This document shows, in pieces, positions 38,240-60,726 of a stretch of DNA of 64,000 nt (within the stretch, counting starts at the first letter, position 1; the number at the start of each line of letters is the position of its first letter). The notes under the pieces were generated by a model. The model saw nothing but the letters and a program-made list of their open reading frames with translations, did no database searches and was not told the DNA's origin. A program made the translations under genes and the position numbers. This stretch comes from a bacterium (lineage in GTDB: Bacteria > Zhuqueibacterota > Zhuqueibacteria > Residuimicrobiales > Krinioviventaceae): NCBI GenBank assembly GCA_963693055.1, contig OY843751.1, positions 3,712,001-3,776,000 on the forward strand. The letters run 5' to 3'.

Positions 38240-38252
38240 ACGACGACAGATA

Positions 38253-40157: not shown

Positions 40158-41437
40158 TGATATAACGGAAGCAAAATAGTGATGGTTGTACCGGCATCGG
40201 GGGCGCTGGTGACCTGAATTTTGCCCTCGTGCTTTTGAATAACGTTATACGCAATGGACAATTCCGTACGCAATTGAATGCGGGAATCTTTTGTCCAAAA
40301 TCCCAGATCAAACATGGTATTTAACTGTTCTTCAGACAAAGGTTTACCTGTATCTGAAATAGAAATCTCTGCAAATTCCGCTTTTTCTTTTTTATCCAGT
40401 TTTACAAATTTTGTGGTAATGGTTAACGTGCCTTTGCTTTCCATATTTTGAACCGCAAAAAGGATCAGGCTCATAAATACCTGATTCATTTGATTGACAT
40501 AACATGGGACATTGGGCAGCTCGGAATATTTTTTAACAATGCTGATCTTTTCATCCAGTTCCTGCCGAATCAATGCCAGTGTATTATCTATACAATCATG
40601 AACATCTACAGCCTGCATATCGGCCTCATCCAAACGCGTAAAACTCTTTAAACTTTTAACCAGTCGCGAAATTCGATCACTGGCCTGAACGATAATTTGA
40701 TTATTGCTTTTTAAAATGTTTAGCGTTTTGTTGTACTGTTCACCATCTTTCAAATCCGGGCAGTCACTGTCGCCAACCAGTTTTTCTATTATTTTCAGAC
40801 ATCGATCAGATATATCTGCTGAGCTTTTTACAACGCCAATAGGATTATTAACTTCGTGGGCAATTCCCGCAACCAGGTTACCCACAGCAGCCATTTTTTC
40901 CGCATGCACAAGCTGAAGCTGTGTAGTTTTTAATTCTTCAAGAGTATTAGAAAGTTCCTGTGTACGTTCAGTCACCTTTTGTTCAAGAGTTTGGTTCATT
41001 TCCAGTAAACGCTGATGCTGTTCTTCCAGTTGCTTTTCCTGATAAAAGCTCTTGATGGCTTCCTGAATCGTTAAAATCAGGTCTTCCGGTTCCCAGGGTT
41101 TGGGGATGTATCGATACAGTTTGGCTTCGTTTACGGCTTTACCAATAGCATCAAGATTGGCCTGCCCCGTCAGCATGATCTTTAGAGTTCCAGGTGAAAT
41201 CTCGTGGATACGTTTCAAGAGTTCATCACCCTTCATGTCGGGCATTATATAATCTGCAATAACAACAGGAACATCACACTGGTCACTCATTAATTCTTCC
41301 AGTATCTCGAGAGCTTCCAGACTGCCTTCAGCAGTTTCAATTATATATTCTTCACCAAATGTACTTTTCAGTTCAGCTTTAAGACTGCTAAGCACAAACA
41401 TTTCATCATCAACACATATTATAGCAGGTTTGCTCAT
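40145..41437 (-). CDS. Hybrid receiver-histidine kinase (REC-HisKA-HATPase)
   Basis: CVDDE, IADYIMP, KPW; AGIAHEVNNP; partly degenerate N/G boxes. Confidence 0.9.
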   Translation of the reverse strand: MSKPAIICVDDEMFVLSSLKAELKSTFGEEYIIETAEGSLEALEILEELMSDQCDVPVVIADYIMPDMKGDELLKRIHEISPGTLKIMLTGQANLDAIGKAVNEAKLYRYIPKPWEPEDLILTIQEAIKSFYQEKQLEEQHQRLLEMNQTLEQKVTERTQELSNTLEELKTTQLQLVHAEKMAAVGNLVAGIAHEVNNPIGVVKSSADISDRCLKIIEKLVGDSDCPDLKDGEQYNKTLNILKSNNQIIVQASDRISRLVKSLKSFTRLDEADMQAVDVHDCIDNTLALIRQELDEKISIVKKYSELPNVPCYVNQMNQVFMSLILFAVQNMESKGTLTITTKFVKLDKKEKAEFAEISISDTGKPLSEEQLNTMFDLGFWTKDSRIQLRTELSIAYNVIQKHEGKIQVTSAPDAGTTITILLPLYHQIT

Positions 41438-41829
41438 AACCTTGCCAATCCTGTATTGATAGTATCAACCAGCTCTTCCTCGGTCCAGGGTTTATGCAGA
41501 CATCTGTGCAAATTCGCATTCTCAACGGCCCGTTTGATAGCCGTATCATCTGCCTGGCCAGTCAGCATAATTTTAACAATTTTGGGGAATTTTTGATGAA
41601 CTTTGATCAAAAATTCATCGCCTTTAATTCCAGGCATTAACCAGTCAGAAACAATAATAATAATATCCAGACCATCCTCTTCAAGTTCTTCAATTAGCTC
41701 CATGGCATCATTTGCGTTTTCTGCAACTTCATAGGTAAACCGGTCACCAAATCTATCTTTTAATTGAATTTTCAAACTATCCAGAATCATTTTTTCATCA
41801 TCTACGCACAGAATAACCTGCCGACTCAT
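41434..41829 (-). CDS. Single-domain response regulator
   Basis: CVDDE, VSDWLMP, MLTG, KPW. Confidence 0.92.
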   Translation of the reverse strand: MSRQVILCVDDEKMILDSLKIQLKDRFGDRFTYEVAENANDAMELIEELEEDGLDIIIIVSDWLMPGIKGDEFLIKVHQKFPKIVKIMLTGQADDTAIKRAVENANLHRCLHKPWTEEELVDTINTGLARL

Positions 41830-43607
41830 GCTTTCTCCTCCGCTATAGGTGGTGTATCCATCGGTAATATCACACTAAAAGTTGTTCTTCCTGGCTCACT
41901 CTCTACATTTATACTACCGCTATGTTTTTCTACAATACGTCTCACAATATCCAGGCCCAGACCGCTTCCCTCACCTCTCGCCTTTGTGGTATAAAATGGC
42001 TGAAAAATCTTTTCCTGAATTTCAGGTGGAATACCAGAGCCACTGTCTGTAATTTTCACTATTACATTTTTATCAACCTGGTCAACATCAACCTGCAAGG
42101 TGCCCTTGTTTTCCATCGCTTGCAATGCATTGTGGATAATATTTGTCCATACCTGATTCAATTCATCCGGGTAGCATAAAATGGGTGGTATCTCTTTGAT
42201 ATTTCGAACCACCTCTACACCATGTTTTAACTGGTTATAATATAAAGTAAGTACCGTTTCAATTCCATCTGCAATACTTGCAGAAACTTTTTGCCCTGAT
42301 TGATCATAACGGGCATAACTTTTTAAAGCAAATACTACTTTGGAAGCCCTGTCTGTTGCGGTACGGATATTATCTGCACTGCGCTGTAAACCAGACAATT
42401 TATACGCCATTTGCAAAATCATCATATTGTCTTTGTGATTTAACAGGGATGCAAACTGGCTGAGCGAATCATAGATCCCCATATCCACCAGGGTATCAGC
42501 AATACTATCTGCCTGATCAATTTGCAATTCCTGCAATTCTATAGTTAAATTTTTACGATGTTGACGTTCCTCTTTAGCAGAAATGCTAAAAGAGCGTGAC
42601 AAAGATTTTTCCATCAATTTAAAAAATGCTTCCCGCTGTTCGGCATTCAAAATCTCAAAAAATCCGGGTAACTGATCAAGCGTTTGTTCCAAAGCACGCG
42701 AAATATATCCAACCGAAGAACGGATCGCTCCCAGCGGAGTGTTGACTTCATGAGCAACACCGGCAATCAACTGCCCCAATGCTGCCATTTTTTCGGATTC
42801 TATCAACTGATTTTGGGTAGCCTTTAACTCGTCCAGAGTCTGGCTGAGTTGATTGGTTTTCTCCTGTAATGCCGTAACTGCCTGGTCACGTTCCTGTTCA
42901 CGCTCCTGTATGGCTTCAAGCATATTATTAAATCCGTCATACAGAACACCAATTTCGTCATTACCCGGCTTCTTGACACGTATGGAATAATCAGCATTTT
43001 CTGAAATTCTGTTGGTAACCTTGGCCAATTTTAATACAGGGCGTGATACAAAGCCCTGTAACCACAATGCCATAAAATGGATCAATACCATTATAGATAC
43101 CAACAATCCTGACATCATCATTAAATATTTCTTAATACGAGCCTGAAGCTGGTGGGTAGAAGCTTTTAACAGTATTGTACCCATTTTTTGGTTATAAGAT
43201 TTTATTGGCTGAAAGATATATAATAAATTCCGATCAAAATAGACAGCACTGTCTTGTACTGCGGGAATAACATCATTCGGGGAAATGGAATAAGAAGCAA
43301 ATACAGAGTCTTGATTGGTGTACACAATTCCCTGTACCAGTTCGGGCAGGGTTTCAATTTTTTCAAGAACTTCCTGAGCGCCAATGGGATATTCAAACTC
43401 GAGTGAAGTAACACAATACTCGCCCATCAACTTGGCATTCATAAGCGTATTGTTCACCAGTTCTTGTTTAAAAGATTTAATATCATTAAAAATTACAAAC
43501 GCAAAACCAAAAAAGATGGCAACAAAAGTAACAATCCAGATGATATAGATAATTTTATTACGTATTGACAAATTCTTCAAGATACTCATATCTTGTCCTT
43601 TTTGCAT
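41826..43607 (-). CDS. Membrane sensor histidine kinase (periplasmic CHASE8-like sensor, HAMP, HisKA, HATPase)
   Basis: Two TM segments; DYSIRV...DEIG.L..GFN.ML HAMP; AHEVNTP; NA.QA, DSGSG, FYTTK, GSGLGL. Confidence 0.9.
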   Translation of the reverse strand: MQKGQDMSILKNLSIRNKIIYIIWIVTFVAIFFGFAFVIFNDIKSFKQELVNNTLMNAKLMGEYCVTSLEFEYPIGAQEVLEKIETLPELVQGIVYTNQDSVFASYSISPNDVIPAVQDSAVYFDRNLLYIFQPIKSYNQKMGTILLKASTHQLQARIKKYLMMMSGLLVSIMVLIHFMALWLQGFVSRPVLKLAKVTNRISENADYSIRVKKPGNDEIGVLYDGFNNMLEAIQEREQERDQAVTALQEKTNQLSQTLDELKATQNQLIESEKMAALGQLIAGVAHEVNTPLGAIRSSVGYISRALEQTLDQLPGFFEILNAEQREAFFKLMEKSLSRSFSISAKEERQHRKNLTIELQELQIDQADSIADTLVDMGIYDSLSQFASLLNHKDNMMILQMAYKLSGLQRSADNIRTATDRASKVVFALKSYARYDQSGQKVSASIADGIETVLTLYYNQLKHGVEVVRNIKEIPPILCYPDELNQVWTNIIHNALQAMENKGTLQVDVDQVDKNVIVKITDSGSGIPPEIQEKIFQPFYTTKARGEGSGLGLDIVRRIVEKHSGSINVESEPGRTTFSVILPMDTPPIAEEKA

Positions 43608-43623
43608 TAACTATAGCATTCCA

Positions 43624-45897
43624 TCAAGGCAAAATTTCAAAGCCAACCAGGTAGGTATCATAGATATAATCCGCAAAACCATATTCACGGTGTTTTCCAA
43701 ATATATTTTTTGCACTGACAAAAGCGGAAACATTTTCCCATAATTTATATGAACATTTTGCATTCAAGCTCAGATATGGATCAAGATGAAGAGGATAATC
43801 TTCTTCCACACTCATACCGGTAAAAGTCTGAGAACCGGAATAATATCCATTTATATTTATATTAAACCTTGAAGGTGAATTATAATTCAGAGAAAAACCA
43901 CCATAGAAATATGGCGTAGAATCGGGTTTATCTCGGGTATCTGATTCAACAATGCTATCCAATTGGGCTTCGGTATAATATTGGTAACCAAGAATTGCTT
44001 CCACTTGTTCAATGTTCCTTCTCAGATTACTTTTAATCTCGTCCTTGTCCCAAATCGTATTGGTTTCCTGCAGAATCCCAAAGAACTTGAATTTCCAATT
44101 TTCAATGGGTGTATAGGTAACAGAGAATTCTAATCCAAATTGCATAGCGTTTTGATAGTCAACATTATCATAAGTTAAATTCTCTGCAATCACCGGCAAT
44201 TGAAAGCCATCGTCAACGGTCATGGTATCAAGGCTAAAATCAGAAACGGGGGTTACCAAAAAATCATCCAGCAATGCACCAAACACCTGTACGTCTACAT
44301 CCAACCTGGGACTAATTTTAGAACGTAAGCCCAATTCCAGATTATGATTGGAAAGATAATCCGTATCCTGATTGGCCTGAAATTTTAACAATACCGGAAA
44401 ACCCGTAGTATAATCACCCAGCCATGTCAATACCGACACATTTTTTCCAATAAAGGAATCCAACATGAATGGGGCCCGATTTGCTTTAGAATAGACCAAT
44501 CTCAACAAATTGTTCTTATTAAGTCTATACGTAGTTGCAGCTTCATAAGTTACAGAAAGGGTTTTGTTGATGGAATAATCATCTACCCGAAAACCACCTA
44601 TCCACCGCCATTGATTCGCAAGCATATAGTCCGCCAGCAGTGAGAAACCGGTTGATTCAATAATCCTGTTGCTCACAGGTTTTTGATGGGTATCCTGGCC
44701 AAAGTCTTCATCATCAATCAACAAACCGCTATAATCGGATTTCCGATAGCTGATACCCGGACGTACATGCAGATTTTTAAAATGGTATTGATATTCAGCC
44801 AGCAAATCCAGATGGTCAAAATCATATGCATTCCAGAAAAAATTATTATCATGTTTGCCTGTCTGCAAAGAAACCTGGGTATATAAACCTTTATATTTGG
44901 CAATCAAATCACCATAGTAGCTTTTGGAATCGTAACCTGACAGCGGAGTAGCAAAATTATTATAATAGGGTTTCTGACTCAAAGCTTCCTGAAAGCCACC
45001 ACTAAAATTGACAGAAAAATCGTCTGAAAAGAAATAACTGAGATAGCTGTTCAAGCCATATTTATCAATTGCCAAATCTTTATCGAACTGAAAATTCATT
45101 CCACTTTCAGACAGTCTATAAGGTTCATTTGTAGCAGGATTAAATCCCCAGAACATGAGTGTTGACATGTCTTCAATAGGTAAATACTCGCGATCCAGCC
45201 AGGCATAATAGAGTTCATCTCTTCTATCCTGGGTTTTATAATTTCCGGAAATTCCAATAGCAATTTTTGAATTTGTATAACCTACAGACAAGTTTGAAAT
45301 TTTGGAATTATCATTCCCTACTGCTGCATTTGCAAAAGCAGATACTCCCGGCTTTTCCGCAAAATGAGTTATAATATTAATTACGCCTGCTGCAGCGTTC
45401 GGCCCATAAAGAGCAGAAGCAGGTCCGCGTACTACTTCAATACGATCAATATCACTAACACCAATAGGTAACGATTCCCAAAAAGTACCACCAGAAAAAT
45501 AATTATACACAACACGATTATCAATCATCACCAGCATGATTGTATTGGTTGGTAACGGGGTCATAAAACTTGTGGTTACATCATCAAATCCACGGATATG
45601 TACGTCAAAATTGCCCGGGGTAGACTCTCTTACAATCAAACCGGGAGCCAACCGTAACGCTTCAGGAATGCTGGTAACACCCGCTTGTAAAATCTCTTCC
45701 TGTTTTATGATTGTTACAGACAGAGGGGCTTCGAACAGATCTTCCGGCCTTTTGGAAGCAGAAACCATAACATCCACATCAAACAGTTCTTCCAAAGACA
45801 TGTCTAAATATACGTTATCAGATTGCCCCAGCACGGCATCTGTTTCAGAGAGAATGAATAAACATAAAATAATATATTGGTACCAGCGAGAACCCAT
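43624..45897 (-). CDS. TonB-dependent receptor
   Basis: MSLEELF...SASK, IPEALRLAPG, IDRIEVVRGPASALYG.NA..GVINIIT plug; beta-barrel; C-terminal aromatic strand. Confidence 0.92.
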   Translation of the reverse strand: MGSRWYQYIILCLFILSETDAVLGQSDNVYLDMSLEELFDVDVMVSASKRPEDLFEAPLSVTIIKQEEILQAGVTSIPEALRLAPGLIVRESTPGNFDVHIRGFDDVTTSFMTPLPTNTIMLVMIDNRVVYNYFSGGTFWESLPIGVSDIDRIEVVRGPASALYGPNAAAGVINIITHFAEKPGVSAFANAAVGNDNSKISNLSVGYTNSKIAIGISGNYKTQDRRDELYYAWLDREYLPIEDMSTLMFWGFNPATNEPYRLSESGMNFQFDKDLAIDKYGLNSYLSYFFSDDFSVNFSGGFQEALSQKPYYNNFATPLSGYDSKSYYGDLIAKYKGLYTQVSLQTGKHDNNFFWNAYDFDHLDLLAEYQYHFKNLHVRPGISYRKSDYSGLLIDDEDFGQDTHQKPVSNRIIESTGFSLLADYMLANQWRWIGGFRVDDYSINKTLSVTYEAATTYRLNKNNLLRLVYSKANRAPFMLDSFIGKNVSVLTWLGDYTTGFPVLLKFQANQDTDYLSNHNLELGLRSKISPRLDVDVQVFGALLDDFLVTPVSDFSLDTMTVDDGFQLPVIAENLTYDNVDYQNAMQFGLEFSVTYTPIENWKFKFFGILQETNTIWDKDEIKSNLRRNIEQVEAILGYQYYTEAQLDSIVESDTRDKPDSTPYFYGGFSLNYNSPSRFNININGYYSGSQTFTGMSVEEDYPLHLDPYLSLNAKCSYKLWENVSAFVSAKNIFGKHREYGFADYIYDTYLVGFEILP

Positions 45898-45914
45898 ACA
45901 GGTCCCTCCCAAAC

Positions 45915-46448
45915 TTAGTATACTTTGACCACTTTGAGTAAATTGGCTGACAAGGTATGTCCTTCTTGCTTTAGCGAATCCAGATTCACAAACAATCTGG
46001 GCTTATCATTCAACAAACCCAACGCTACTGACGCGTGTCCCTCTTCTGCATACCTTGTTATACCCGTTATTGATAATTTTTTATATTTTTTACAAATAGC
46101 AGATACCCTGTTTGTACCCGGCATCATGTAAACAATATCATAATCCTTAATATGCTGCTCAATTTCACCTTGCTGAACAGCTTTTACATTAACACCCGCG
46201 TCTTTGAATGCCTGGCTCATTTCATCTTTGATTGAACGCGTACGACTGTTGTAAATAATCAACAACGAAATTTCGCCGTCATCTTTTAGCTCGGTATCGT
46301 ACTTGAATACCTTGACAAAGGTAGCCACCTGCAATAAAACCGGTGTTTCCATATTTTGAGCAGAAACCGGTTTTGCAATGCAAAAGATCAAAACTAGTAA
46401 TAAAATTTTGAAAAACTTTTTCAACAAATTGAGCATTAAAGCGTCCAT
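45915..46448 (-). CDS. YfiR/HmsC-like periplasmic protein
   Basis: Signal peptide; C-terminal PRLFVNL..LK.EG..LSANLLKVV; position beside TBDR and CHASE-type kinase. Confidence 0.75.
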   Translation of the reverse strand: MDALMLNLLKKFFKILLLVLIFCIAKPVSAQNMETPVLLQVATFVKVFKYDTELKDDGEISLLIIYNSRTRSIKDEMSQAFKDAGVNVKAVQQGEIEQHIKDYDIVYMMPGTNRVSAICKKYKKLSITGITRYAEEGHASVALGLLNDKPRLFVNLDSLKQEGHTLSANLLKVVKVY

Positions 46449-48458: not shown

Positions 48459-48514
48459 GTGGTCAGTGGTCAGTGGTCAGTGGTCAGTGGTCAGTGGTCA
48501 GTGGTCAGTGGTCA
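48459..48514. repeat. Perfect heptamer tandem repeat (GTGGTCA)8
   Basis: Eight exact copies, with a degenerate GTGGTAA copy just before, in the gap between convergent genes. Confidence 0.97.
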
Positions 48515-48555: not shown

Positions 48556-48588
48556 AAAAAACCGGAGTTGATCAACTCAACCCCGGTT
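48556..48588 (-). terminator. Intrinsic terminator of the FISUMP locus
   Basis: AACCGGGGTTGA-loop-TCAACTCCGGTT then T tract on the minus strand. Confidence 0.8.
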
Positions 48589-48602: not shown

Positions 48603-51600
48603 TTATTCAGTACTGTCTTTGACGAGACGTATAGAGCGCCCGTGTTTTAGATACAAGCCGTAACGAGTTATCATATCACTATCATAGATCAGGTACCGCA
48701 TCTTAGCGGTACTATTACCGGACTGTGTAGCAGTCCAAAATGCGGCATAGCTGCCCAAACTGGAAAAATCAATCCCAGTATTGGGGTAACGGTAACCGCC
48801 AGGACGAGCTGAAAACCCGCTTTCATTGGTAGCACCCGTATTGGGATTTTGCCATAAACCATTCCTTGATTCGACAGTTCCCATTTCTTTTAGCTTCCCA
48901 CCTTCATCTGTGCCGCGGTATTGACTATCATCTATTTCCACATCGTTCATGCTCATACCTAAAAACATTTCCATTTCTTTCCATTCTTCATCACTTGGTA
49001 CATGCCATCCTTCGGGTGCAATATTGCGCTCATCATCAACAGCATACCAGTTGTACAGGGCACCATAAATAGCAGCATTTTTTTTATCATTATCATAATA
49101 ACAAAAAGCACCAGATAAGACATCCCACTCGGCTGCATCGGTAGCATTCGGAATTAGATCTCCATTACGATAATGGGTCACCCTTAAATTCTCTGCCATC
49201 CACCATTGATTACCAATTTTAACAGTCCTGTAAACATTACCATCATTATCTGTCATAGTACCGATTTCAAGGGAGTTATTTTGCACGCTTATTATTGTTT
49301 CAGCAGTTTGATTTTTGTAACTGGCTGTAATTGTTACTACACCTGTATTGGAATTTGAGGATGTAAACAATCCGTTATTATCAATTGTACCTGCGCTACC
49401 AGAGGTAATACTCCATGTCGTTTCATTACTTATATCTACTGAACCCCCATCAGTTAAGTTGGTGGTACAATTAAGCTGCAAGGTTTCGCCATTGTAAACA
49501 ATGCTGTAGGGTTGTGTGATATTGATACTTTCTAACTCACTTGAGGTTTCTTCACCACGGACAAGACGTATTGAGAACCCGCCTATTCTAGGACCATAAT
49601 TTCGGGATACTCGATTCTCCATAAAATGCAAAATCCGGATCCAATAAGAGTTTTCACTGATAGCCGTAGAAGACCAATAAAACGCATACATACCCATGCC
49701 ACTATTACGCCAACCACCAGCCCGGGCGGAAAATCCACTCTCGTTCGTAGCACTATTTGTAAAACCAGGGTTGGGTTTTTTCCAGTGAGCATTGCCGATT
49801 TCTTTCAGTTTATCACCTTCATCTGTGCCCCGAAATTTGCCCAAAAAATCACCTTCTGAATCCGCTTCTTCCTGGCTCATACCTAAATACATCTCTAACT
49901 CTTTCCATTCATCATCTGTCGGTACATGCCACCCTTCCGGTGCAATATTACGTGCATCCGTAGCAGCATACCCGTTATAAAATGCGCCATAGTCATCAGC
50001 ATATTTATTATTGTTGTTATAATAACATAATGCTCCAGTCACAAGTTCGCCCCATTCTGTATCATCCGTAACGTTTGGTATTGGATCACCATTTCGATAA
50101 TGTGTTACTCGCAGATCTTCCATCATCCACCATTGTTCACCGATCCTGATGGTCTTGTAAACATTACCGTCAATATCCGTTACTGTTCCGGTTTCAAAAA
50201 TCGCATCATCATATTCAATCTCAAAGCATTCATCACTCTCATCTGACATGCTGGATTGTGTTCCAATTACATTGATTGTAAACTGGTTGGATGGTGAAAG
50301 CGTACTGGGAATATTCCAGGAAAATTCACCATCATTTTCTGTTTCAGCTATCCGTATAGAAAAAACTCCTTTTTGATACAAATCCAGATAAACCATCTTA
50401 TCATACTCATTAGGATCCCAATGGATACTTGTGGTATTTCCGGCAAGAAAGCTTTCACCGCCATTGGGATAAGTCATTGTAATATCAGGATCCATTTCAT
50501 CACTATCACTGACCAAACGGATATAAAAGCCATTTCCTTTGTTGTAGGAATCACGGGAAATTGAGCTATGATCATAGCCTAAACTTCGGGCCCATGCTTC
50601 ATCTTTACCATTTTGAGAAGATGTCCAAAAACATGTATTTGTATTTTTTGTTTGAAATTCTCCAGTAAGGTAGTTACAGAAACCACCGGGCAATGCTCTG
50701 AACCCACTCTCATTGGTAGCGCCTGTATTGGGGCTGTTCCAATGATCGGTACCCGATTCTTTCAACATACCGCCTTCAACCGTGCCCCGCGGGCCGACAT
50801 TATCCAAATCACTCATACCCAGATATGACTCTAACTGTTTCCATTCATCATCAGTGGGAGCATGCCAGCCTTCAGGGAAAATATCATATTCAAAAGCAGT
50901 TTCAATCATATTCCAGTTATACATTGCACCGTAAATATCTAGATTGTTTTCGTCATCATCATAATAACAGCAAGCAGCTTCAGACAGCCCAACCCAGGGA
51001 TCATCATTATCCGTATATAACCATGAAAATCCATATACATTATGGGTTGTTTTCAGGTTTTCGGCCATCCACCATTGATTACCGATCTTGATAATTTTAT
51101 AGGTTTTTCCCTCAAGATCCGTCATAGTCCCGGTTTCATATTTGCTATCAACTGTTATGGTGGTTTCTGCAGTTAAACCATCAAATAACACTTTAATTTT
51201 CACACTACCTGTAGCCAGGTCATCAGCTGTAAAAAGTCCATCAGTGTCAATAATACCGCAATTACCATAAATTATATTCCAGGATACATATTTACTGATG
51301 TCAATTGCACTGCCATCACTATATTGAGCAGTACATGTTAATTGTAAAGATTCACTATTATTAACAGTTATATCCTGAGGTGTGATTTTAATTGCATCTA
51401 ACCTTGTAAAATTTGTATCACCTTTTGCACAGCGAAACCCCCGATTTTTATATCCTAACCACGCCTTATCACGGTTACGATTTGCAGGTCTGGCTTTGGA
51501 CATGGCCTCATCCCATGCTCCACCTCGCAGTATCCGGCCTGTTTTGTTTACATCAGATGGACCATATGGATTTTCACACGGTCCGGTACTGTAATAATCA

Positions 51601-52520
51601 CGATCATACCTGTCCGCACACCACTCCCAAACGTTACCGCTCATATCATAAATACCCAATTCATTTGCCTGTTTCTGGCCTACAGGTTGAGAACTATTAC
51701 CAGAATTCTGAGCAAACCAACCCACAACATCCATTTCATTGCCACCGCTGTAAGTATAACCCTGACTCTGGTTACCACCGCGGGCCGCGTATTCCCACTC
51801 GGCTTCAGTAGGCAGACGTTTGTTCAAGTATTCCGCGAATGTTTTGGCACCGTTCCAGGTGACATAAATTACAGGATTATTTCCTTTACCATCCTCAACC
51901 ACAAACTGACCATTCTGAAAAGCGATCTGACAGTCTTCCGCACCAAGATTAAAAAGTGTAAGCGTATCCTTTTTCACTCTGGTATTATCCAAGACTATTA
52001 ATCCATCCGATAATGCGTAATTTAAAAAATCGGCATAATCGAAATTGGTAACTTCATATTTATCCATATAGAAATCATCCAGGGTAACCGTATGTACCGG
52101 TTTTTCATCATCTTGACCATTTGTGCTGCCCATATTAAAGGTACCGCCTTTAACAAAAACCATCTCGGGTCCGTTGTAATCACTGGCAGTAACACGAATT
52201 TGAAAGCCATCTCCGCTAACACCGGGATTATCAGCAAGAAAATCCCAGACAATGTGCTTGTTCGTACCGGACAAAACACTGTCCCCCACATCACCGGTAA
52301 CATGATCACAAGGCAACTCCCAGGTTGCACCATTATCATCAGATGCTTTCAAAGATATAATCAGTGTATCCCCGTCTGCATCTGTGACATCATAATATAT
52401 GTCTGCTGTGAGTGAACCGTCCGTACGTTGTTCCAAGCGTACATTTTCAACAACCGGGTCCGCCGCAAACAACAGCCCCATAATCATGATCATAATCAGT
52501 ATTACCAGATTCGTTTTCAT
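48603..52520 (-). CDS. Secreted multidomain protein A: N-domain, FGE-like CLec domain, Big2, FISUMP, Ig, FISUMP, Big2, FISUMP
   Basis: Signal peptide; RLPTEAEWEYAARGG, DMSGNVWEWC; three modules D.DGN.Y.T.KIG.QWWM.ENL...PEGWH.P...EW...GATNESGF...FW...IRLV. Confidence 0.88.
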   Translation of the reverse strand: MKTNLVILIMIMIMGLLFAADPVVENVRLEQRTDGSLTADIYYDVTDADGDTLIISLKASDDNGATWELPCDHVTGDVGDSVLSGTNKHIVWDFLADNPGVSGDGFQIRVTASDYNGPEMVFVKGGTFNMGSTNGQDDEKPVHTVTLDDFYMDKYEVTNFDYADFLNYALSDGLIVLDNTRVKKDTLTLFNLGAEDCQIAFQNGQFVVEDGKGNNPVIYVTWNGAKTFAEYLNKRLPTEAEWEYAARGGNQSQGYTYSGGNEMDVVGWFAQNSGNSSQPVGQKQANELGIYDMSGNVWEWCADRYDRDYYSTGPCENPYGPSDVNKTGRILRGGAWDEAMSKARPANRNRDKAWLGYKNRGFRCAKGDTNFTRLDAIKITPQDITVNNSESLQLTCTAQYSDGSAIDISKYVSWNIIYGNCGIIDTDGLFTADDLATGSVKIKVLFDGLTAETTITVDSKYETGTMTDLEGKTYKIIKIGNQWWMAENLKTTHNVYGFSWLYTDNDDPWVGLSEAACCYYDDDENNLDIYGAMYNWNMIETAFEYDIFPEGWHAPTDDEWKQLESYLGMSDLDNVGPRGTVEGGMLKESGTDHWNSPNTGATNESGFRALPGGFCNYLTGEFQTKNTNTCFWTSSQNGKDEAWARSLGYDHSSISRDSYNKGNGFYIRLVSDSDEMDPDITMTYPNGGESFLAGNTTSIHWDPNEYDKMVYLDLYQKGVFSIRIAETENDGEFSWNIPSTLSPSNQFTINVIGTQSSMSDESDECFEIEYDDAIFETGTVTDIDGNVYKTIRIGEQWWMMEDLRVTHYRNGDPIPNVTDDTEWGELVTGALCYYNNNNKYADDYGAFYNGYAATDARNIAPEGWHVPTDDEWKELEMYLGMSQEEADSEGDFLGKFRGTDEGDKLKEIGNAHWKKPNPGFTNSATNESGFSARAGGWRNSGMGMYAFYWSSTAISENSYWIRILHFMENRVSRNYGPRIGGFSIRLVRGEETSSELESINITQPYSIVYNGETLQLNCTTNLTDGGSVDISNETTWSITSGSAGTIDNNGLFTSSNSNTGVVTITASYKNQTAETIISVQNNSLEIGTMTDNDGNVYRTVKIGNQWWMAENLRVTHYRNGDLIPNATDAAEWDVLSGAFCYYDNDKKNAAIYGALYNWYAVDDERNIAPEGWHVPSDEEWKEMEMFLGMSMNDVEIDDSQYRGTDEGGKLKEMGTVESRNGLWQNPNTGATNESGFSARPGGYRYPNTGIDFSSLGSYAAFWTATQSGNSTAKMRYLIYDSDMITRYGLYLKHGRSIRLVKDSTE

Positions 52521-52529
52521 TTTTGCCTT

Positions 52530-52669
52530 TGTATTTATTTATAAAGTTACTATCAGTATTCGTCCCTGTATCTGTTAACCGTTTAACAAATACATCACCT
52601 TTATATAAATCAATATATAAATCCAGACATGTGATGGATTATTTCCCAGTCCCAAACATTCAAGGATCA
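52530..52669 (-). pseudogene. Decayed Ig-like module trailing protein B
   Basis: After TFPDED-stop the DNA still reads SLNVWD then, frameshifted, YIDLYKGDVFVKRLTDTGTNTDSNF, matching FPNGGETLEVWD...YVDLYKGNALVERLKDTGTSNDGDF of protein C. Confidence 0.75.
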
Positions 52670-55600
52670 ATCCTCATCCGGAAAGGTAACAGTCTGTGGT
52701 GCATTCAGTTCACTATTATCACGAATCAAACGTATGGAATATCCGTGTTCACTGATGTAACAGTTCCAATCGATGATCTTTTCATCATAGATCAATTGTC
52801 GCTGTATAAAACCATTGTGATATTTTCCATCATTCGGTTGGTCAACCCAAAAGTATGCAGAGTTGTACAAATCTTCAAACTCGCCACTATGGATTTCACG
52901 CTGACCACCCGGCCGGGCTGAAAATCCATATTCGTTTGTGGCGCCGGTATTGGGTTCTCTCCAGAAACCGGTTCCCGCCTGGATGGTACCCCTTTCCTTG
53001 AGCATGGCGCCTTCATCAGTATCAGATCTGCTGTAACTTTCAACTTTTTCCTGGCTCATGCCCAGGTACAGTTCCAGCTCTTTCCACTCATCATCAGTGG
53101 GAACATGCCAACCTTCTGGTGCAATAGAGGGCAAATGATCTATAACATATCCATTATACAAGGCACCAAACACCGATGCATTACTAGAGTCATTGTCATA
53201 ATAACAGTATGCGCCAGTATCCTTATTTTTCCAAACAGAATTTTGTGTAACATGCTGTATGGGAGTGCCATCACGATAGTGGGTCACTTTAAGATTTTCC
53301 GCCATCCACCATTGATTGCCGATTTTAACAGTTTTATATACATTACCGTCAATATCTGTCATGGTACCGGTTTCAAAATCAAGCCCATCATTAACAATTG
53401 AAAAATAATCATCACTAATATCATACAATCCGGTTACCACACCGGTAATTTTAATACGATAATCCGTGCCTGAAATCAGATTTGGCGAAATTCTCCAGGT
53501 ATATTCACTATCATGGGTTGTATCCATATCTACGATCCGTTCAACAAGCTCGTCGCCTTTATATAAATCAATATATACCCGTTCATCTATGGGATTATTG
53601 TTCCATTTGATAAAATATTCCACCCCAGCTTTCAAGTATTCACCTCCATTGGGGAATGTAATAATAGGCGGTATATTGGTTTTGTCATTGTCCCGGATGA
53701 GACGGATTGAACATCCAGATTGTTTACTCGAAGAATCACGGTATATTGTTTCACTATAATAGCTCAATCTCCGATGCAAGACAGAGGATTTGTTCACTTC
53801 CGGAGCAGACCAATAGTAGGAACGAACACCCATTTCATGGAAATCACCATCAAAGAAAGAACGACAACCACCAGACCGTGCGGTAAATCCGCTCTCATTT
53901 GTAGCGCCAGTGTTGGGACTTTTCCAGTGTTCAAAACCGATTTCTTTTAGTTTACCACCTTCATTTGTACCCCTATATCCATATTCTGAATCCGCTTCTT
54001 CCTGGCTCATTCCCAGATACAACTCTAATTGTTTCCACTCATCATCAGTGGGTACATGCCACCCTTCGGGTGCAATATTACGAACAGCATCAGCAGCATA
54101 CCCGTTATACATTGCGCCATAGTCATCAGCATAATTGCTGTCGTTGTTATAATAACAGAATGCTCCGGTTTCAAGTTCGCTCCATTCGGTACCATCAGTT
54201 ACGTTTGGTATTGGGTCACCATTTCGATAATGTGTTACTCGCAGATCTTCCATCATCCACCATTGCTCACCGATCTTGATGGTCTTGTAAACATTACCGT
54301 CAATATCTGTTACCGTTCCCATCTCAAAACTCGCTTCATCAAATTGAATTTCAAAGGATTTATCGCTTATATCTGACATGCTGGATTGAGTACCCGTTAT
54401 CTTGATTGTATAATTGGATGTTGTAAGCGTATTGGGAATTTCCCAGGAAAATTCACCATCATTTTCCGTTTCAGCTATCCGTATTAAAGCAATGCCATTT
54501 TGACACAAATCCAGAGTGACCATCTCATCATAAGGGCCAGCATCCCATCGGATACTGATTGTATGTCCTGCAATTATGCTTTCACCACCATTTGGAAAAG
54601 TCAATGTGAAATCAGCGTCCTTTACATCACTATCACGGACCAGACGGACATAAAAACCATATCCTTTGTTGTAAGAATCGCGGGAAATTGTGCTATGATC
54701 ATAGCCTAAACTACGGGCCCATGCATTATCGGCATCATTTTGTGAAGACGTCCAAAAACAAGTATTTGTATTTATTGTTTGGAATTCCCCTGTAGTATAG
54801 TGACGGAAACCACCCGGTAATGCGCCAAAGCCACTCTCATTAGTAGCGCCGGTATTGGGGCTGTTCCAATGATTTGTACCCGTTTCTTTCAACATGCCGC
54901 CTTCAACCGTGCCCCGCTGGCCGACATTATCCAAATCACTCACACCCAGATATGACTCTAACTGTTTCCATTCATCATCAGTGGGAACATGCCACCCTTC
55001 AGGGGCAATGTTTTGTTCATAAACAAGCGCATACCATCTATACATAGCACCGTAAATATCTAAATTATTTTCGTCATTATCGTAATTAAAATTGTAAATT
55101 TCATCTCCATTACTGTAATGAGTCACTTTGAGATTTTCAGCCATCCACCACTGACTTCCGATCTTTACAATTTTATAGGTATTTCGGTCTATATCACTCA
55201 TATAACCAGTTTCATGCCCAAAATCAACCGTTACTGTGGTTTCAACAGTTAAACCATCAAATAATGCCTGTATTTTTACGTTACCCCCCTTATCATCACT
55301 TGCTGTGAAAAGCCCTTTACTATCAATACTGCCGCTTGTACCGGACAAAAGTTCCCAGGTTGCATACATACTTATATCAACTTTACTTCCATCACTATAC
55401 CAGGCAGTACAATTCAACGGCAGGAATTCACCTTTTTTTATTGTTTTATCCTGAGGTGAAATATTGATAGAGTCCAATTTTGTAAATGCTGTATCACCCT
55501 TAACACACCGGAATCCGCGATTATTGTATCCGGTCCATGCATGATCACGGTTGCGGTTAGCCGTTTTTGCCTTGGCTTGAACATCGTCCCATGCGCCGCC

Positions 55601-56593
55601 GCGCAATACACGGGCTGTTTTGTTTTCATCATATGGGCCATATGGATTACTACCCGGTCCGGTATAGTAATAATCACGATCATACCTGTCCGCGCACCAT
55701 TCCCACACATTACCGCTCATATCATAAAGCCCCAGTTCATTCGCCTTTTTCATGCCAACAGCCTGTGTGCTGTCTGCATTGGTATTAAACCAGCCCACAG
55801 CATCCATATCATTGCCGCCGCTATAGGTATAACCCTGACTCTCGCTGCCGCCTCGGGCCGCGTATTCCCATTCTGCTTCGGTAGGCAGACGTTTGTTAAA
55901 ATACTTGGCATAAGCATCGGCACCAAACCAGGTAACATTTGTAACCGGATGTTCTTCTTTATTGTCTGTAACCGCAAATACACCATTACTGTACGTAATC
56001 TTGCAATCCTCATCAGAAAGATCAAGCAGTGTTGTAGTATCCTGTTTGACAACATCCTCAGTGACTGTAATCGATCCATTAGCAAGAACAGCATTTAAAA
56101 AATCTGTATATTGCCCTTTGGTTACTTCATAAAGATCCATGTAAAAATCATTCAATGTAACCGAATGCACAGGCTGTTCGTCATCTTCTCCGTCAGTACT
56201 CCCCATATCAAAGGTGCCGCCTTTAACAAAAACCATCGCGGGTTCTTTAAAATCAATGGCAATGATTCTCACCTGGTACCCCTCACCACTTATACCGGGA
56301 TTATCAGCAAGAAAATCCCATACAATGTGTTTGCCTGTACCTGTCAGCACACTGTCTCCTATATCACCACTCACATGGTTTACCGGCAGCTCCCAGGTTG
56401 CACCATCATCATCTGATGCTTGTAAGGTGATGGTCAGTGTGTCTCCGTCTGCATCTGTAACATCATAATAGATGTCCGCATAGAGCGAACCGTCCGTGCG
56501 TTGTTCCAAGCGTACATTTTCAACCACCGGATCTGCCGCGTGCAGCAGCCCTATAATTAAAGACACAAACAAAATCACCAAATTCTTTTTCAT
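52667..56593 (-). CDS. Secreted multidomain protein B: N-domain, FGE-like, Big2, FISUMP, Ig, FISUMP, Ig, FISUMP
   Basis: Same motifs as A; start MKKNLV (56593) matches the paralogs; alternative start 56608. Confidence 0.88.
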   Translation of the reverse strand: MKKNLVILFVSLIIGLLHAADPVVENVRLEQRTDGSLYADIYYDVTDADGDTLTITLQASDDDGATWELPVNHVSGDIGDSVLTGTGKHIVWDFLADNPGISGEGYQVRIIAIDFKEPAMVFVKGGTFDMGSTDGEDDEQPVHSVTLNDFYMDLYEVTKGQYTDFLNAVLANGSITVTEDVVKQDTTTLLDLSDEDCKITYSNGVFAVTDNKEEHPVTNVTWFGADAYAKYFNKRLPTEAEWEYAARGGSESQGYTYSGGNDMDAVGWFNTNADSTQAVGMKKANELGLYDMSGNVWEWCADRYDRDYYYTGPGSNPYGPYDENKTARVLRGGAWDDVQAKAKTANRNRDHAWTGYNNRGFRCVKGDTAFTKLDSINISPQDKTIKKGEFLPLNCTAWYSDGSKVDISMYATWELLSGTSGSIDSKGLFTASDDKGGNVKIQALFDGLTVETTVTVDFGHETGYMSDIDRNTYKIVKIGSQWWMAENLKVTHYSNGDEIYNFNYDNDENNLDIYGAMYRWYALVYEQNIAPEGWHVPTDDEWKQLESYLGVSDLDNVGQRGTVEGGMLKETGTNHWNSPNTGATNESGFGALPGGFRHYTTGEFQTINTNTCFWTSSQNDADNAWARSLGYDHSTISRDSYNKGYGFYVRLVRDSDVKDADFTLTFPNGGESIIAGHTISIRWDAGPYDEMVTLDLCQNGIALIRIAETENDGEFSWEIPNTLTTSNYTIKITGTQSSMSDISDKSFEIQFDEASFEMGTVTDIDGNVYKTIKIGEQWWMMEDLRVTHYRNGDPIPNVTDGTEWSELETGAFCYYNNDSNYADDYGAMYNGYAADAVRNIAPEGWHVPTDDEWKQLELYLGMSQEEADSEYGYRGTNEGGKLKEIGFEHWKSPNTGATNESGFTARSGGCRSFFDGDFHEMGVRSYYWSAPEVNKSSVLHRRLSYYSETIYRDSSSKQSGCSIRLIRDNDKTNIPPIITFPNGGEYLKAGVEYFIKWNNNPIDERVYIDLYKGDELVERIVDMDTTHDSEYTWRISPNLISGTDYRIKITGVVTGLYDISDDYFSIVNDGLDFETGTMTDIDGNVYKTVKIGNQWWMAENLKVTHYRDGTPIQHVTQNSVWKNKDTGAYCYYDNDSSNASVFGALYNGYVIDHLPSIAPEGWHVPTDDEWKELELYLGMSQEKVESYSRSDTDEGAMLKERGTIQAGTGFWREPNTGATNEYGFSARPGGQREIHSGEFEDLYNSAYFWVDQPNDGKYHNGFIQRQLIYDEKIIDWNCYISEHGYSIRLIRDNSELNAPQTVTFPDED

Positions 56594-56740
56594 TTCTACC
56601 TTTTTCATTCAGATCAATTACCGTCCATTGGTTTTGACAGGATCAATTTTCTCAATCACATAATCACAAGATTCAAACCGGTACATGTACATACCGCTGA
56701 TTACCAATTAACTTTATGTTACGCGTGTCCCTCTTAATTA

Positions 56741-56771
56741 TATAGGGACCGGCCAGAGACCAGTCCCTATA
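56741..56771 (-). terminator. Intergenic hairpin (weak terminator or mRNA stabiliser) between C and B
   Basis: TATAGGGAC...GTCCCTATA stem; no clear U tract. Confidence 0.45.
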
Positions 56772-56807
56772 AATTCAATTAATTACGATATTGCTCAAAT
56801 ATTTTTA

Positions 56808-59699
56808 TTACTCTTGATCCTTTACACAACGGATAGACGAGCTCTTGGCATTGCTTGTGTGTGAAACAATCGGGTTATCGTAATTCAAAATCCGTACCCA
56901 TGCATAATGTATAGGTGAAGAAACAGCAGTAGATGACCAAAAGTACGCATATCGAGTCATATCTTCGAAAGATCCAGTCGCATAACGGGCGCCACCGGCT
57001 AGTGCTGAAAAACCACTTTCGTTTGTTGCTCCGGTGTTTGGATTTCTCCAATACCCTGCCCCTTCTTCTTTCATTTTACCACCGGCAACATTTTCACCAC
57101 CAAGGTAATTGATCAAAGTATTCCACTCTTCATCTGTTGGTACATGCCAGCCTTCCGGTGCAACTTTTCGTTCATCACTAACCGCATACCAATTATACAA
57201 GGCACCAAACATACCGGCATAATTGCTGTTATCATTATAAAAACAATATGCACCCTCTGTTGTCGTAATCCATGCGTCATCTCCAATCACATTGGGAATA
57301 GGGTCACCATTTCTATAATGCTTTACATTCAGATTATCTGCCATCCACCATTGATCACCTATCTTGACAGTTCTGTATGAATTGCCATCAATATCTGTAA
57401 GGGATCCAGTTTCAAAATTTAACCCATTATTAACGATTGTAAAAAAACCATCACTAAAATCAGATAATCCGGTTTCTTTACCTGTAATTTTGATTCGATA
57501 GTCACTGCCTGTTACCAAATCTGTTGAAATAATCCAGGTAAAATCTCCATCGTTGCTGGTACCTGTATCTTTTAATCGCTCAACTAATGCATTGCCTTTA
57601 TACAAGTCAACATATACCCTATCATCATTTGAACTATTTTCCCATCTTATGATAAGTTTGTCCCAAACCTCCAATGTTTCTCCACCGTTAGGAAAATAAA
57701 CAAGCGGCAATGATCCAACATCACGATCTTTGACAAGGCGGAGAGAGAAACCATTTTGTTTATGACTTTCAAGCATATCGCTGGCATTGCTTTCATAATT
57801 CAAATTCCGGCGCAATCCTTTAAAACTATTATATTCTGAAGATGTCCAAAAATAAGCATAATTCCCCAGTTCCATAAAAGCTGCTTCCAGCTTGGCACAA
57901 TATCCACCGGGAAGTGCAGTAAATCCGCTCTCATTGGTAGCACCCGTATTCGGGCTACTCCAAAAGCTGGTACCTTCTGATTTTAATTTTCCACCTGCAA
58001 CCCCTTTACCACCCAGATAATTTTCAAGCTCGCTCCATTCCGCACTTGTAGGCACATGCCAGCCTTCAGGTGCAATCTTGCGGCCATCTGTAACAGCAAA
58101 CCAGTTATATAAAGCACCATAGACTTGGCCATTATTACTGTTATTGTTATAATAACAATAAGCACCGGTTAATAAATTTGCCCATACATTCAGGTCCATT
58201 TCATTAGCAATGGGATCCCCATTACGATAATGCTTAACATTGAGGTTTTCAGCCATCCACCACTGATCACCTATCTTGATAGTTTTATAAGTATTGCCAT
58301 CATTATCAACCATGTTTCCATATATATTACTAACTGTCACAGTCGCTTCTGCTGTAATTCCATTGTATTCAGCTTGAACGGTAACATTACCGGAAGCTTG
58401 TTGAGAAGCTGTGAATAAACCATCATTATTAATTTCTACTGCATCTCCCGACACAATTGACCAATTGGCATTGACTGTTACATCTTTTTCACTATCATCA
58501 CTATATTGTGCCATACAAGTAAAATAAAATGAACTTGCATTTGCAACAGTGGTATTATGGGGAGTTATGAAAATACTTTCTACTATTGTGAAATTGGTAT
58601 CACCTATTACACATCGGAATCCACGATTTTTATAACCGATCCATGCATAATCACGATTACGATTTGCGGGTTTGGCCTTGACTTGTGCATCGTCCCAGGC
58701 ACCACCACGCAACACATGAGCATTGATATCATTTAGAGGGCCCTGTGGATTATTATCAGGACTTGCTCCATAATAATTGCGATCATATTGATCCACACAC
58801 CACTCCCAAACATTACCACTCATATCGTAAATACCTGCTTCATTGGCTTGTTTTTGTCCAACAGCTTGTACACTGTTGTTGGAATTTGCTCTGTACCAGC
58901 CGACTGCATCCATATCATTACTGCCGCTATAGATATAGCCCTGACTTTGGCTACCGCCTCGGGCCGCATATTCCCATTCTGCTTCACTGGGTAACCGTTT
59001 TGCATAGTATTTGGCATAGGCATCTGCACCAAACCAGGTAACATTGGTTACCGGATATTCTTCTTTATCATCTGTAACCGAAAACGTTCCATTTTCGTAA
59101 ACGATCTTGCAGTCTTGATCAGAAAGATCCAGCAGCGTGGTGGTATCCTGTTTCACTGTACTTCCGGATATTGTAATCAGATCTTGCGCAAGCATCGCAT
59201 TCAAAAACTCGGTGTATTGCGACTTGGTCACTTCATAGGGATCCATGTAAAAATCGCTCAATGTAACAGTATGTACAGGACTTTCATCATCATCACCGTC
59301 AGTGCTGCCCATATCAAAGGTGCCACCTTTAACAAAAACCATCCTGGGCTCTTTGTAATCACTGGCTGTAACGCGAACACGGTAACCCTCTCCACTTACT
59401 TCAGGATTATCAGCCAGAAAATCCCACACTATGTGCTTGTCCGTACCTGCAAGCACACTGTCTCCTACATCACCCGTGACATGACTCACCGGCAGTTCCC
59501 AGCTTGCACCATCATCGTCTGATGCTTTTACTGTAACGGTTAGTGTATCTCCGTCCGCATCAGTAACATCATAATAAATATCCGCTTTGAGCGAACCGTC
59601 TGTGCGTTGTTCCAAACGTACATTCTCAACCACAGGATCTGCAGCATATGACAGTCCTATGATTATGATCATAAACAGTATTGCTAAATTCTTTTTCAT
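56808..59699 (-). CDS. Secreted multidomain protein C: N-domain, FGE-like, Big2, FISUMP, Ig, FISUMP
   Basis: Same motifs as A and B; two FISUMP modules. Confidence 0.88.
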   Translation of the reverse strand: MKKNLAILFMIIIIGLSYAADPVVENVRLEQRTDGSLKADIYYDVTDADGDTLTVTVKASDDDGASWELPVSHVTGDVGDSVLAGTDKHIVWDFLADNPEVSGEGYRVRVTASDYKEPRMVFVKGGTFDMGSTDGDDDESPVHTVTLSDFYMDPYEVTKSQYTEFLNAMLAQDLITISGSTVKQDTTTLLDLSDQDCKIVYENGTFSVTDDKEEYPVTNVTWFGADAYAKYYAKRLPSEAEWEYAARGGSQSQGYIYSGSNDMDAVGWYRANSNNSVQAVGQKQANEAGIYDMSGNVWEWCVDQYDRNYYGASPDNNPQGPLNDINAHVLRGGAWDDAQVKAKPANRNRDYAWIGYKNRGFRCVIGDTNFTIVESIFITPHNTTVANASSFYFTCMAQYSDDSEKDVTVNANWSIVSGDAVEINNDGLFTASQQASGNVTVQAEYNGITAEATVTVSNIYGNMVDNDGNTYKTIKIGDQWWMAENLNVKHYRNGDPIANEMDLNVWANLLTGAYCYYNNNSNNGQVYGALYNWFAVTDGRKIAPEGWHVPTSAEWSELENYLGGKGVAGGKLKSEGTSFWSSPNTGATNESGFTALPGGYCAKLEAAFMELGNYAYFWTSSEYNSFKGLRRNLNYESNASDMLESHKQNGFSLRLVKDRDVGSLPLVYFPNGGETLEVWDKLIIRWENSSNDDRVYVDLYKGNALVERLKDTGTSNDGDFTWIISTDLVTGSDYRIKITGKETGLSDFSDGFFTIVNNGLNFETGSLTDIDGNSYRTVKIGDQWWMADNLNVKHYRNGDPIPNVIGDDAWITTTEGAYCFYNDNSNYAGMFGALYNWYAVSDERKVAPEGWHVPTDEEWNTLINYLGGENVAGGKMKEEGAGYWRNPNTGATNESGFSALAGGARYATGSFEDMTRYAYFWSSTAVSSPIHYAWVRILNYDNPIVSHTSNAKSSSIRCVKDQE

Positions 59700-59736
59700 T
59701 TGTGCCCCTTTTATTATTCAGGTTTATTTTGTCTGC

Positions 59737-60726
59737 TTATTTTAACAGCATCATTTTCTGGATAAATACATGACCTCCGGATTCAAATCGACACAGGTAC
59801 ATACCGCTGGTTACCGGCATTCCCTGATTGTCTCGAGCGTCCCATTGGATGGTATAACGGCCGGCCTGGCGTTGTCCGTTTTCCAAATTACGGATTACCT
59901 GACCCACACTGTTGTATACAACCAAAGAGACATCAGAGGTCTTGGGCAGATGATAAGTTACAAATGTAGTTGGATTAAATGGATTCGGATACACTGGCAG
60001 CAATGCAAATGTTTTCGGTATGGAGGCTTCGCCATTTATACCTGTTGCCCAAGTACTGAATGACCAAGCACTTGAAAACTCGCCTTCCCCGGCTGGATTG
60101 ATTGCACTGATGCGCCAGTACCAGGTCTTGTTCATTTCAAGATCTACAGCATACTGGGTCTCTGCGATTCCGGTTTCATCAATAGTTAATTCTGAAAAAT
60201 CCTGTTTGTTTGATACCTGCAAATGATAAGATCCCGCACCGTCTACACTGTTCCAGCTCAACTGCTGATTGGGGCTGATGCCTTCAGCGCCGTTCTCCGG
60301 CTCTACCAAGTCCGGTGCCGATACAGGCTCGAGTGTGGTAAATGTCCATACAGAAGAATACGGACTGCTGCCCGCGGCATTTACGGCATTAACACGCCAA
60401 TAATGCTGCGTGTTGAAAGATAGTCCTGTGACTTTATACAGCGTATCTGTTATTGCAGCTGCGTCAACCAGCAGCGTATTAAAATCATCCACAGTGCTCA
60501 TTTGCACATTGAATTCTGATGTGTGAATAAGTGATTTCCAGATCAGTTGAACTGAATCCGGAAGGGATGTTTGTCCGTTTGCTGGCCCACTCAATGCAGG
60601 AGCTGCGGGTGGCAGCGAAGTCATGAATACAGATTCGGATTCACCAATACCGGTACCGGCTATCAGCACAGATCCAATCAATATCACAATCATAGAAACC
60701 AGTAATGCTTTTTGCTGATTAGACAT
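59737..60726 (-). CDS. Small secreted protein: N-terminal extension, two FN3 domains, FlgD/T9SS-type sorting domain
   Basis: Signal peptide; YWRVNAVNAAG and WYWRISAINPAG; YPNPFNP...WDARDNQG.PVTSGMY...QKMMLLK. Confidence 0.88.
   Translation of the reverse strand: MSNQQKALLVSMIVILIGSVLIAGTGIGESESVFMTSLPPAAPALSGPANGQTSLPDSVQLIWKSLIHTSEFNVQMSTVDDFNTLLVDAAAITDTLYKVTGLSFNTQHYWRVNAVNAAGSSPYSSVWTFTTLEPVSAPDLVEPENGAEGISPNQQLSWNSVDGAGSYHLQVSNKQDFSELTIDETGIAETQYAVDLEMNKTWYWRISAINPAGEGEFSSAWSFSTWATGINGEASIPKTFALLPVYPNPFNPTTFVTYHLPKTSDVSLVVYNSVGQVIRNLENGQRQAGRYTIQWDARDNQGMPVTSGMYLCRFESGGHVFIQKMMLLK

Follow-up and report, generated by a model that had tools for sequence, protein, structure and literature searches.

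How three large secreted proteins that carry no sorting domain, lipobox or transmembrane anchor could be exported or tethered is the question raised by four co-oriented genes in a 64,000-nucleotide stretch of the bacterial contig OY843751.1 (the window). Only the first gene product, here called the anchor, ends in a C-terminal sorting domain (CTD) of the kind used by the T9SS (type IX secretion system). The three large proteins, here called heads, begin with a domain that lacks its last β-strand, and the anchor begins after its signal peptide with a short peptide that could provide this strand. Sequence comparison and structure prediction make it very probable that donor-strand completion in trans joins head and anchor in this way. 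The fuller reading, in which the clip also serves export on the CTD of the partner and the heads act as binding modules, is held with less assurance but is still considered probable. The split-domain clip itself appears to be real and widespread, recurring in several uncultured bacterial groups, and can be regarded as a variant of donor-strand complementation.

An Ig-like domain that ends at strand F

A preliminary description of the locus had claimed four co-oriented genes with a sorting domain only on the first, and heads without a sorting domain, lipobox or membrane anchor, and both claims were confirmed. Four minus-strand open reading frames (ORFs) of 329, 963, 1313 and 1305 amino acids were verified at their coordinates, and the 329-residue anchor matches fn3, FlgD_ig and Por_Secre_tail/TIGR04183. 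The heads match FGE-sulfatase, two to three Fib_succ_major domains, and Big_2 and/or Kre9 Ig domains in Pfam, the FGE label here denoting the FGE-sulfatase fold match. Profile searches found no sorting domain in the three heads, which also have no PNPF tail. Residues 1-35 of each head contain no Cys for a lipobox, none lies near the cleavage site of the anchor, and the best 19-residue hydropathy of the heads past the signal peptide is 0.83-1.02, with no late hydrophobic segment. An identity as PorK/GldK is not supported, since TIGR03525 scores 88-106 bits against a cut-off of 350 and the lipobox Cys is absent; a WxL domain was not matched by Pfam in any of the four proteins.

The third structural claim, a conserved N-terminal head domain with FN3/Ig-like strands and no strand G, also agrees with the data. 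The domains are about 96 residues long and show 82% identity to the first. In the AlphaFold model (63-row alignment, pLDDT 92), strands at residues 4-12, 20-27, 34-41, 55-57/60-63, 66-73 and 88-94 correspond to A, B, C, C′ (two short pieces), E and F, and strand G is missing. The model of a fused homologue from locus L073 (115 residues, pLDDT 95), for which the 20-row alignment contains some stray rows, has extra strands at 97-101 and 105-108. In a structure comparison against 48,161 chains, the head model reached Z 7.8 (root-mean-square deviation 2.5, 84 residues aligned) and the fused model Z 9.2 (2.6, 96 aligned), values that mark a common fold rather than family membership. The head model spans residues 2-81 of the 97-residue PKD chain 4xed and the fused model 2-96; on 8jmw, the coverage is 703-789 and 703-802, respectively. 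No Pfam family matched the domain above cut-off, Foldseek gave no match in the PDB at E ≤ 0.001, a PDB sequence search yielded weak rows and Asp-box look-alikes from sialidases but nothing else, and the ESM Atlas returned only unnamed clusters (0.84-0.85).

The domain belongs to a large family, whose representatives number 5,873 when the limit is E ≤ 0.001 and 1,900 when it is 1e-10. Matches occur in 60 of 121 genomes of the phylum Cloacimonadota (that of genome G150) and in 48 of 145 genomes of the phylum of the window, counts that include complete and membrane-tailed forms. Many members are tandem repeats in which a G..S..F.vD(T/N) strand follows strand F. A profile of this G strand, scored behind strand F with each repeat protein left out in turn, gave more than 8 bits for 155 of 182 tandem-repeat copies; of 132 N-terminal single copies, none did so. 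The head domain thus corresponds to an Ig-like domain without its last strand, as in donor-strand-complemented assemblies.

Several other architectures were seen in the family. Giant proteins with many complete tandem copies (P0092-P0100, L109, L110 and L115; 29 stretches in P0092) mostly end in a C-terminal hydrophobic helix, and in P0069, P0192, P0196 and P0212 the acceptor lies at the extreme C-terminus, so that the protein stops right after strand F. In L011, L016, L025 and L032, the acceptor is followed by an M28 peptidase, a β-strand-like segment and the protein's own CTD; these are possibly discontinuous domains in which the peptidase separates strand F from strand G, the later strand being a candidate picked by eye. 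A distant class (L017, L029, L053-L055, L075 and L094) has hydrophobic segments in place of strand G, and some of its members adjoin FISUMP lipoprotein-like genes.

The donor peptide and its genomic company

The donor peptide can be identified as strand G by comparing fused and split forms of one locus. At L070-L073 and L112, the domain leads through a Phe-bearing strand into a large protein, which has about 3,000 residues and a CTD where its end is visible. At 18 split loci (L066-69, L087-88, L091-93, L096-101 and L103-105), the domain heads an FGE protein without a CTD, and the next gene opens with its own signal peptide, after which come the strand and the downstream motif of the fused forms; the upstream gene looks similar by eye in most of them, and three further loci end before the next gene. 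The preliminary description had proposed a G-x-S-x-x-x-F motif for the peptide, which proved to be in the wrong register, because across 15 anchors S7, T13 and S14 are invariant and F11 is variable. Its comparison of the anchor peptide with the ends of Kre9 domains in the locus was dropped as evidence, as the register differs. Cleavage of the anchor signal peptide before G24 was read by eye from an A-x-A-type site.

The pairing of heads and donors was then followed through gene order, in which related genomes do not count as independent. The genome of the window contains 11 domain copies in five loci, each with an adjacent co-oriented donor-like gene, six in all. A 13-column donor profile built from 17 donors of other genera ranks exactly these six head-adjacent genes, each within 114 bp of a head, as the top 6 of 4,348 signal-peptide-like ORFs in the genome (14.3-30.3 bits; next, 11.1). 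Across 95 de-duplicated locus rows, a donor pattern recognised a neighbouring donor for 55 of 79 head rows, including one false call at a membrane-tailed locus, and for none of 16 rows with a cis strand, an own CTD or a membrane tail. The 24 misses comprise four inner members of arrays that do have a donor, three donors recognised by eye, nine contig or locus edges, two members of the membrane-tailed class, one later cis strand, one fragment and four true misses. Since this pattern was composed after donors had been seen, it was fixed and then applied to 20 new loci, one per genome from 20 of the 60 matching Cloacimonadota genomes, chosen as high-scoring rows with long flanks. An adjacent donor was found in 12 of the 20 by the fixed pattern and in 16 by eye, where the background amounts to 5-12% (224 of 4,207 ORFs; 23 of 190 CTD ORFs). 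Judged by prediction and comparative genomics, another chain appears to provide the missing strand in its N-terminal extension.

A further sign of pairing may lie at domain position 75. Where the cis strand bears Phe, 189 of 198 domains have a small residue there, while 101 of 132 heads have an aromatic one; at the loci, aromatic-75 heads pair with non-Phe donors. This pattern would fit size compensation between groove and strand.

The predicted complex and its competing explanations

Structure prediction of head 3 with the anchor, from alignments of head-3 residues 20-117 and anchor residues 24-134, gave ipSAE values of 0.89, 0.89 and 0.88 in three runs, compared to 0.00 for the best of three controls; the runs share 99% of their contacts, and the partner pLDDT is 95. 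Solved complexes attain this mark in 116 of 157 cases and mismatched pairs in 2 of 215, a calibration that holds only roughly with the alignments used here. In the model, peptide residues 3-12 lie antiparallel to strand F (91-5, 89-7 and 87-11/12) and touch strand A, which is the position of strand G. Further contacts come from residues 44-47 and 93-95 in the first FN3 domain of the anchor, which include the invariant His45 and Asn93; of the 25 FN3 matches that were scored in the genome, only the six anchors have this His.

Several observations weigh against the proposed clip or its role in export and have to be set beside these results. The halves of split domains tend to pass the complex test through likeness to solved FN3 folds, and the complex consequently supports binding without showing it. 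The lone head domain is itself modelled at pLDDT 92, so that the model gives no sign of instability. The M28-peptidase proteins with their own CTD and the membrane-tailed class have the domain without a directly following G strand. The canonical G-strand profile fails to single out window-type anchors among the 183 CTD-type ORFs of the genome, the best anchor scoring 1.6 bits at rank 9 and the window anchor falling outside the top 25; the window-type donor is a diverged subtype in which Phe and Asp are replaced. The covariation at position 75 rests on few clades of related, non-independent genomes. No adjacent donor was present at L050, L051, L058 and L082, nor at L126, L128, L132 and L133, which are 4 of the 20 blind loci. 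Many Cloacimonadota donors have no CTD.

Donor bodies comprise FN3 domains with a CTD, a CTD alone, FG-GAP with a dockerin, Ig domains lacking any recognised tag, and dockerin scaffolds. The proposal that the donor is a sorted stalk stood for the window anchor, which has a CTD, but did not hold in general, because two of the six donors in this genome are FG-GAP proteins ending in a dockerin and many Cloacimonadota donors lack a CTD. With donors elsewhere ending in a dockerin or carrying no tag, the pairing is a general clip that is not restricted to sorted stalks. From here, it could be argued that the clip is real but not an export device. It would then be a general tether of two chains that meet in the periplasm or once each has been exported separately, with the CTD on this donor being incidental. 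Such a tether would suit donors that end in Dockerin_1 (the two of this genome, and L081, L083 and L107), in FN3 or in no recognised tag. It would also suit the absence of GldM and GldN matches in searches of the genome, for which control searches were equally blank, and the status of T9SS beyond Bacteroidota, which is so far a proposal (PMC11285876). On the other side, minimal donors with little beyond a signal peptide, the strand and a CTD (L049, L108, L113, L116, L119 and L143) suggest that the CTD is what is supplied, and domain proteins with their own CTD have an adjacent donor in none of four rows. We regard the tether without export as unlikely, although it deserves consideration.

If there were no complementation at all, the six-stranded domain would be stable alone, and the peptide would be a relic of gene fission kept by operon synteny. 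The high pLDDT of the lone domain, the heads without an adjacent donor and the way in which the window-type peptide departs from the canonical strand are in line with such a relic. However, the peptide, with its invariant S7, T13 and S14, is kept before unrelated bodies (FN3 with CTD, CTD only, FG-GAP with dockerin, and dockerin only), scaffolds contain as many as six copies of it, the donor gene can lie upstream or downstream of the head, and the complex scores 0.89 against 0.00, which leaves the relic very improbable. That the proteins are pilins polymerising into a filament through head-to-tail strand exchange is the least credible explanation. It shares the chemistry of chaperone-usher, type V and WxL pili, and a few heads do carry two acceptor domains or a C-terminal one, but a donor-pattern scan finds no donor peptide within the three window heads, the anchor lacks an acceptor domain, and the flanking ORFs, to which the search for chaperone and usher genes was confined, include neither.

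Collectively, donor-strand completion in trans as first suggested gains support from complete homologues, fused and split orthologues, adjacency across the genome and across phyla, and the controlled complex prediction. The proposed checks by co-occurrence and fused homologues turned out in its favour, with adjacent donors in this genome and in other phyla and with fused forms at L070-L073 and L112. In the proposed structural check, the peptide is predicted to dock in the A/F groove (ipSAE 0.89 versus 0.00), and the lone domain is also modelled well (pLDDT 92).

The mechanism can be outlined in steps, the first two of which are evident from sequence. The domain is complete in tandem-repeat and fused proteins and stops at strand F in heads, and genes encoding a signal peptide followed by a G-like peptide adjoin the head genes. 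Both chains are predicted to pass through Sec and lose their signal peptides, after which the freed peptide would fill the A/F groove 1:1 and the first FN3 of the anchor would pack against the A-B loop of the head. Since each strand would hold a single head, heads 1-3 would be in competition for the anchor. The pair may then be exported via SprA/PorV on the CTD of the anchor and be retained, or released after PorU processing, so that heads would be exported or tethered through the CTD of their partner. The FGE and FISUMP domains of C-type lectin (CLec) fold would finally serve as binding modules in an array that could expand and shuffle without tags of its own. The genome encodes SprA, two PorU and PorV-family genes, all over cut-off; at least 22 PorV-family matches exceed it.

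A last strand on a separate chain that holds a large ectodomain to its anchor is found in the GAIN domain of adhesion G-protein-coupled receptors and in SpyTag/SpyCatcher. The former arises by self-cleavage of one gene product and the latter is engineered and covalent, while the present pair is encoded by two genes. In chaperone-usher pili (PMC6615685), an Ig-like fold that is incomplete in one chain is completed by an N-terminal extension belonging to a second chain, as would be the case here. The present donor and acceptor, in contrast, lie on separate, non-polymerising proteins of which neither carries both, the acceptor family is FN3-like with complete cis forms, and the donor bears a T9SS-type CTD or a dockerin. 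Unlike type V pili, the window heads and anchor have no lipobox Cys. The Elr/WxL pilus of Enterococcus differs in its WxL fold, ElrD polymer, membrane chaperone ElrE, sortase anchoring and restriction to Bacillota (10.64898/2026.10.17.759780). Transport of type IX cargo is stated to require the cargo's own CTD (PMC11285876); the anchor has a TIGR04183 CTD and the genome encodes SprA, PorU and PorV, but here large cargo without a CTD would borrow one from another chain. Cohesin-dockerin scaffolds, including the proposed cellulosome-like complex of Ca. Stygibacter, resemble the present case in docking modular payloads on a CTD-anchored scaffold, and some donors here carry dockerins. Their link is a domain-domain contact and not a single strand completing one domain, and the head and donor proteins are not mentioned in the accessible part of that account (PMC8542988). 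As had been supposed, no description of this pair was found in a literature that includes papers on pili, T9SS and retroelements, subscription journals and supplements lying outside its scope.

Locus layout, scaffolds and variable heads

The coordinates of the locus are collected in Table 1. A same-genus genome has a 92% identical anchor followed by four heads. The out-of-frame Kre9-type Ig relic can be taken as a sign of domain loss, and the head array is fluid, as judged from the differing head number in the same-genus genome and the decayed Ig domain between heads 2 and 1. A promoter scan remained at chance level (43 versus 44 expected).

Table 1. Positions within the window of the four genes and their parts
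Feature	Position	Strand	Content or basis
Donor/anchor gene, 329 aa	59737..60726	-	Signal peptide, donor strand, two FN3, T9SS-type CTD
Anchor signal peptide, residues 1-23	60658..60726	-	Cleavage site by eye
Donor strand G, anchor residues 24-38	60613..60657	-	Predicted antiparallel to head strand F, beside strand A
Anchor first FN3	60328..60612	-	fn3 match; invariant His and Asn (45 and 93 of alignment A2) contact head residues 14-18 in the model
Anchor second FN3-like repeat	60049..60327	-	Likeness to first FN3; no separate Pfam fn3 stretch
Anchor CTD	59740..59994	-	TIGR04183 43.6 bits (cut-off 23); FlgD_ig
Head 3, 963 aa, without CTD	56808..59699	-	Acceptor, FGE-fold, Big_2-like, FISUMP, Kre9 Ig, FISUMP
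Head 3 acceptor domain	59355..59642	-	FN3/Ig-like strands A-F, without G
Head 2, 1313 aa, without CTD	52667..56608	-	Acceptor, FGE, three FISUMP and Ig spacers
Head 2 acceptor domain	56249..56536	-	Domain homology
Head 1, 1305 aa, without CTD	48603..52520	-	Acceptor, FGE, three FISUMP and Ig spacers
Head 1 acceptor domain	52176..52463	-	Domain homology
Spacer with out-of-frame Kre9-type Ig relic continuing head 2	52521..52666	-	Translation by eye versus intact Kre9 domains
Terminator-like hairpin, 12-bp stem, 3′ of last head	48560..48588	-	Consensus match only

Elsewhere in the window, a 7-bp unit in eight exact copies (48459-48514) lies between the last head and a CNNM/GldE-like gene. Genes for a TonB-dependent receptor, a YfiR-like protein, a HAMP sensor kinase and a receiver-domain protein occupy 40145-46448, where matches to NF053590-NF053592 are partial and below cut-off. 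The selenocysteine elongation factor SelB (TIGR00475 over cut-off) is encoded at 38226-40157 and a 1541-residue β-helix, FN3 and CTD protein at 11740-16365.

Across the family, the payloads behind the acceptor include FGE, FISUMP, β-helix, laminin-G and others. Dockerin scaffolds with tandem strands, counted by eye, bear two strands at L081, three at L107 and six at L083. Small secreted proteins with tandem strands and a dockerin-type tail, each near an acceptor head, were noted at L083:3802-4497, L081:5182-5670, L107:5611-6027, L080:5309-5794 and L127:3660-4355, and such proteins are candidate multivalent scaffolds.

Three acceptor-FGE heads with no adjacent donor seen (L047, L051 and L126) are followed by Avd-like and reverse transcriptase (RT) genes, assigned by Pfam for L047 and L051 and by eye for L126. 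In their template repeats, A is the mismatched base at 17 of 18, 17 of 19 and 16 of 17 mismatches, respectively. As judged from these repeats, the three heads are targets of diversity-generating retroelements (DGRs). Two of the genomes with DGR heads also hold multi-strand scaffolds (G153, L083; G150, L081), from which pairing in trans may be inferred. DGR target proteins with CLec fold (PMC11661182) resemble the present heads in their FGE and Fib_succ_major folds. The three related heads are themselves such targets, but no DGR link was found for the window heads. The single RT of the window's genome lies 0.67 Mb away, and its surrounding 16 kb matches none of 10 of the 11 heads, a template elsewhere not having been searched for. 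This only RT match (G000:C1:4444361-4446947) has a 417-residue ORF upstream and error-prone-polymerase-like genes downstream by eye, a region that we presume to be retron-like.

A still wider picture, which we put forward tentatively as possible rather than probable, is that of a widespread natural tag and catcher. In FCB-group and other bacteria, cargo with no tag of its own would leave by type IX-type machinery with the help of a borrowed CTD, and dockerin scaffolds with several strands would gather various heads, some DGR-hypermutated and encoded elsewhere, as a multivalent antibody-like surface array in which groove and strand subtypes set the pairing. If export on a borrowed CTD is true, it would open a route to the surface for anchor-less signal-peptide proteins with FGE, FISUMP, β-helix and other payloads in little-studied phyla. 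The need for type IX cargo to have a CTD of its own would then no longer hold as a rule. The clip would give a function to an unannotated domain family and separate the variable binding head, on which DGRs act in some cases, from the constant anchor. Moreover, the 96-residue catcher and 15-residue tag, with their natural subtypes, are potentially useful parts for protein engineering.

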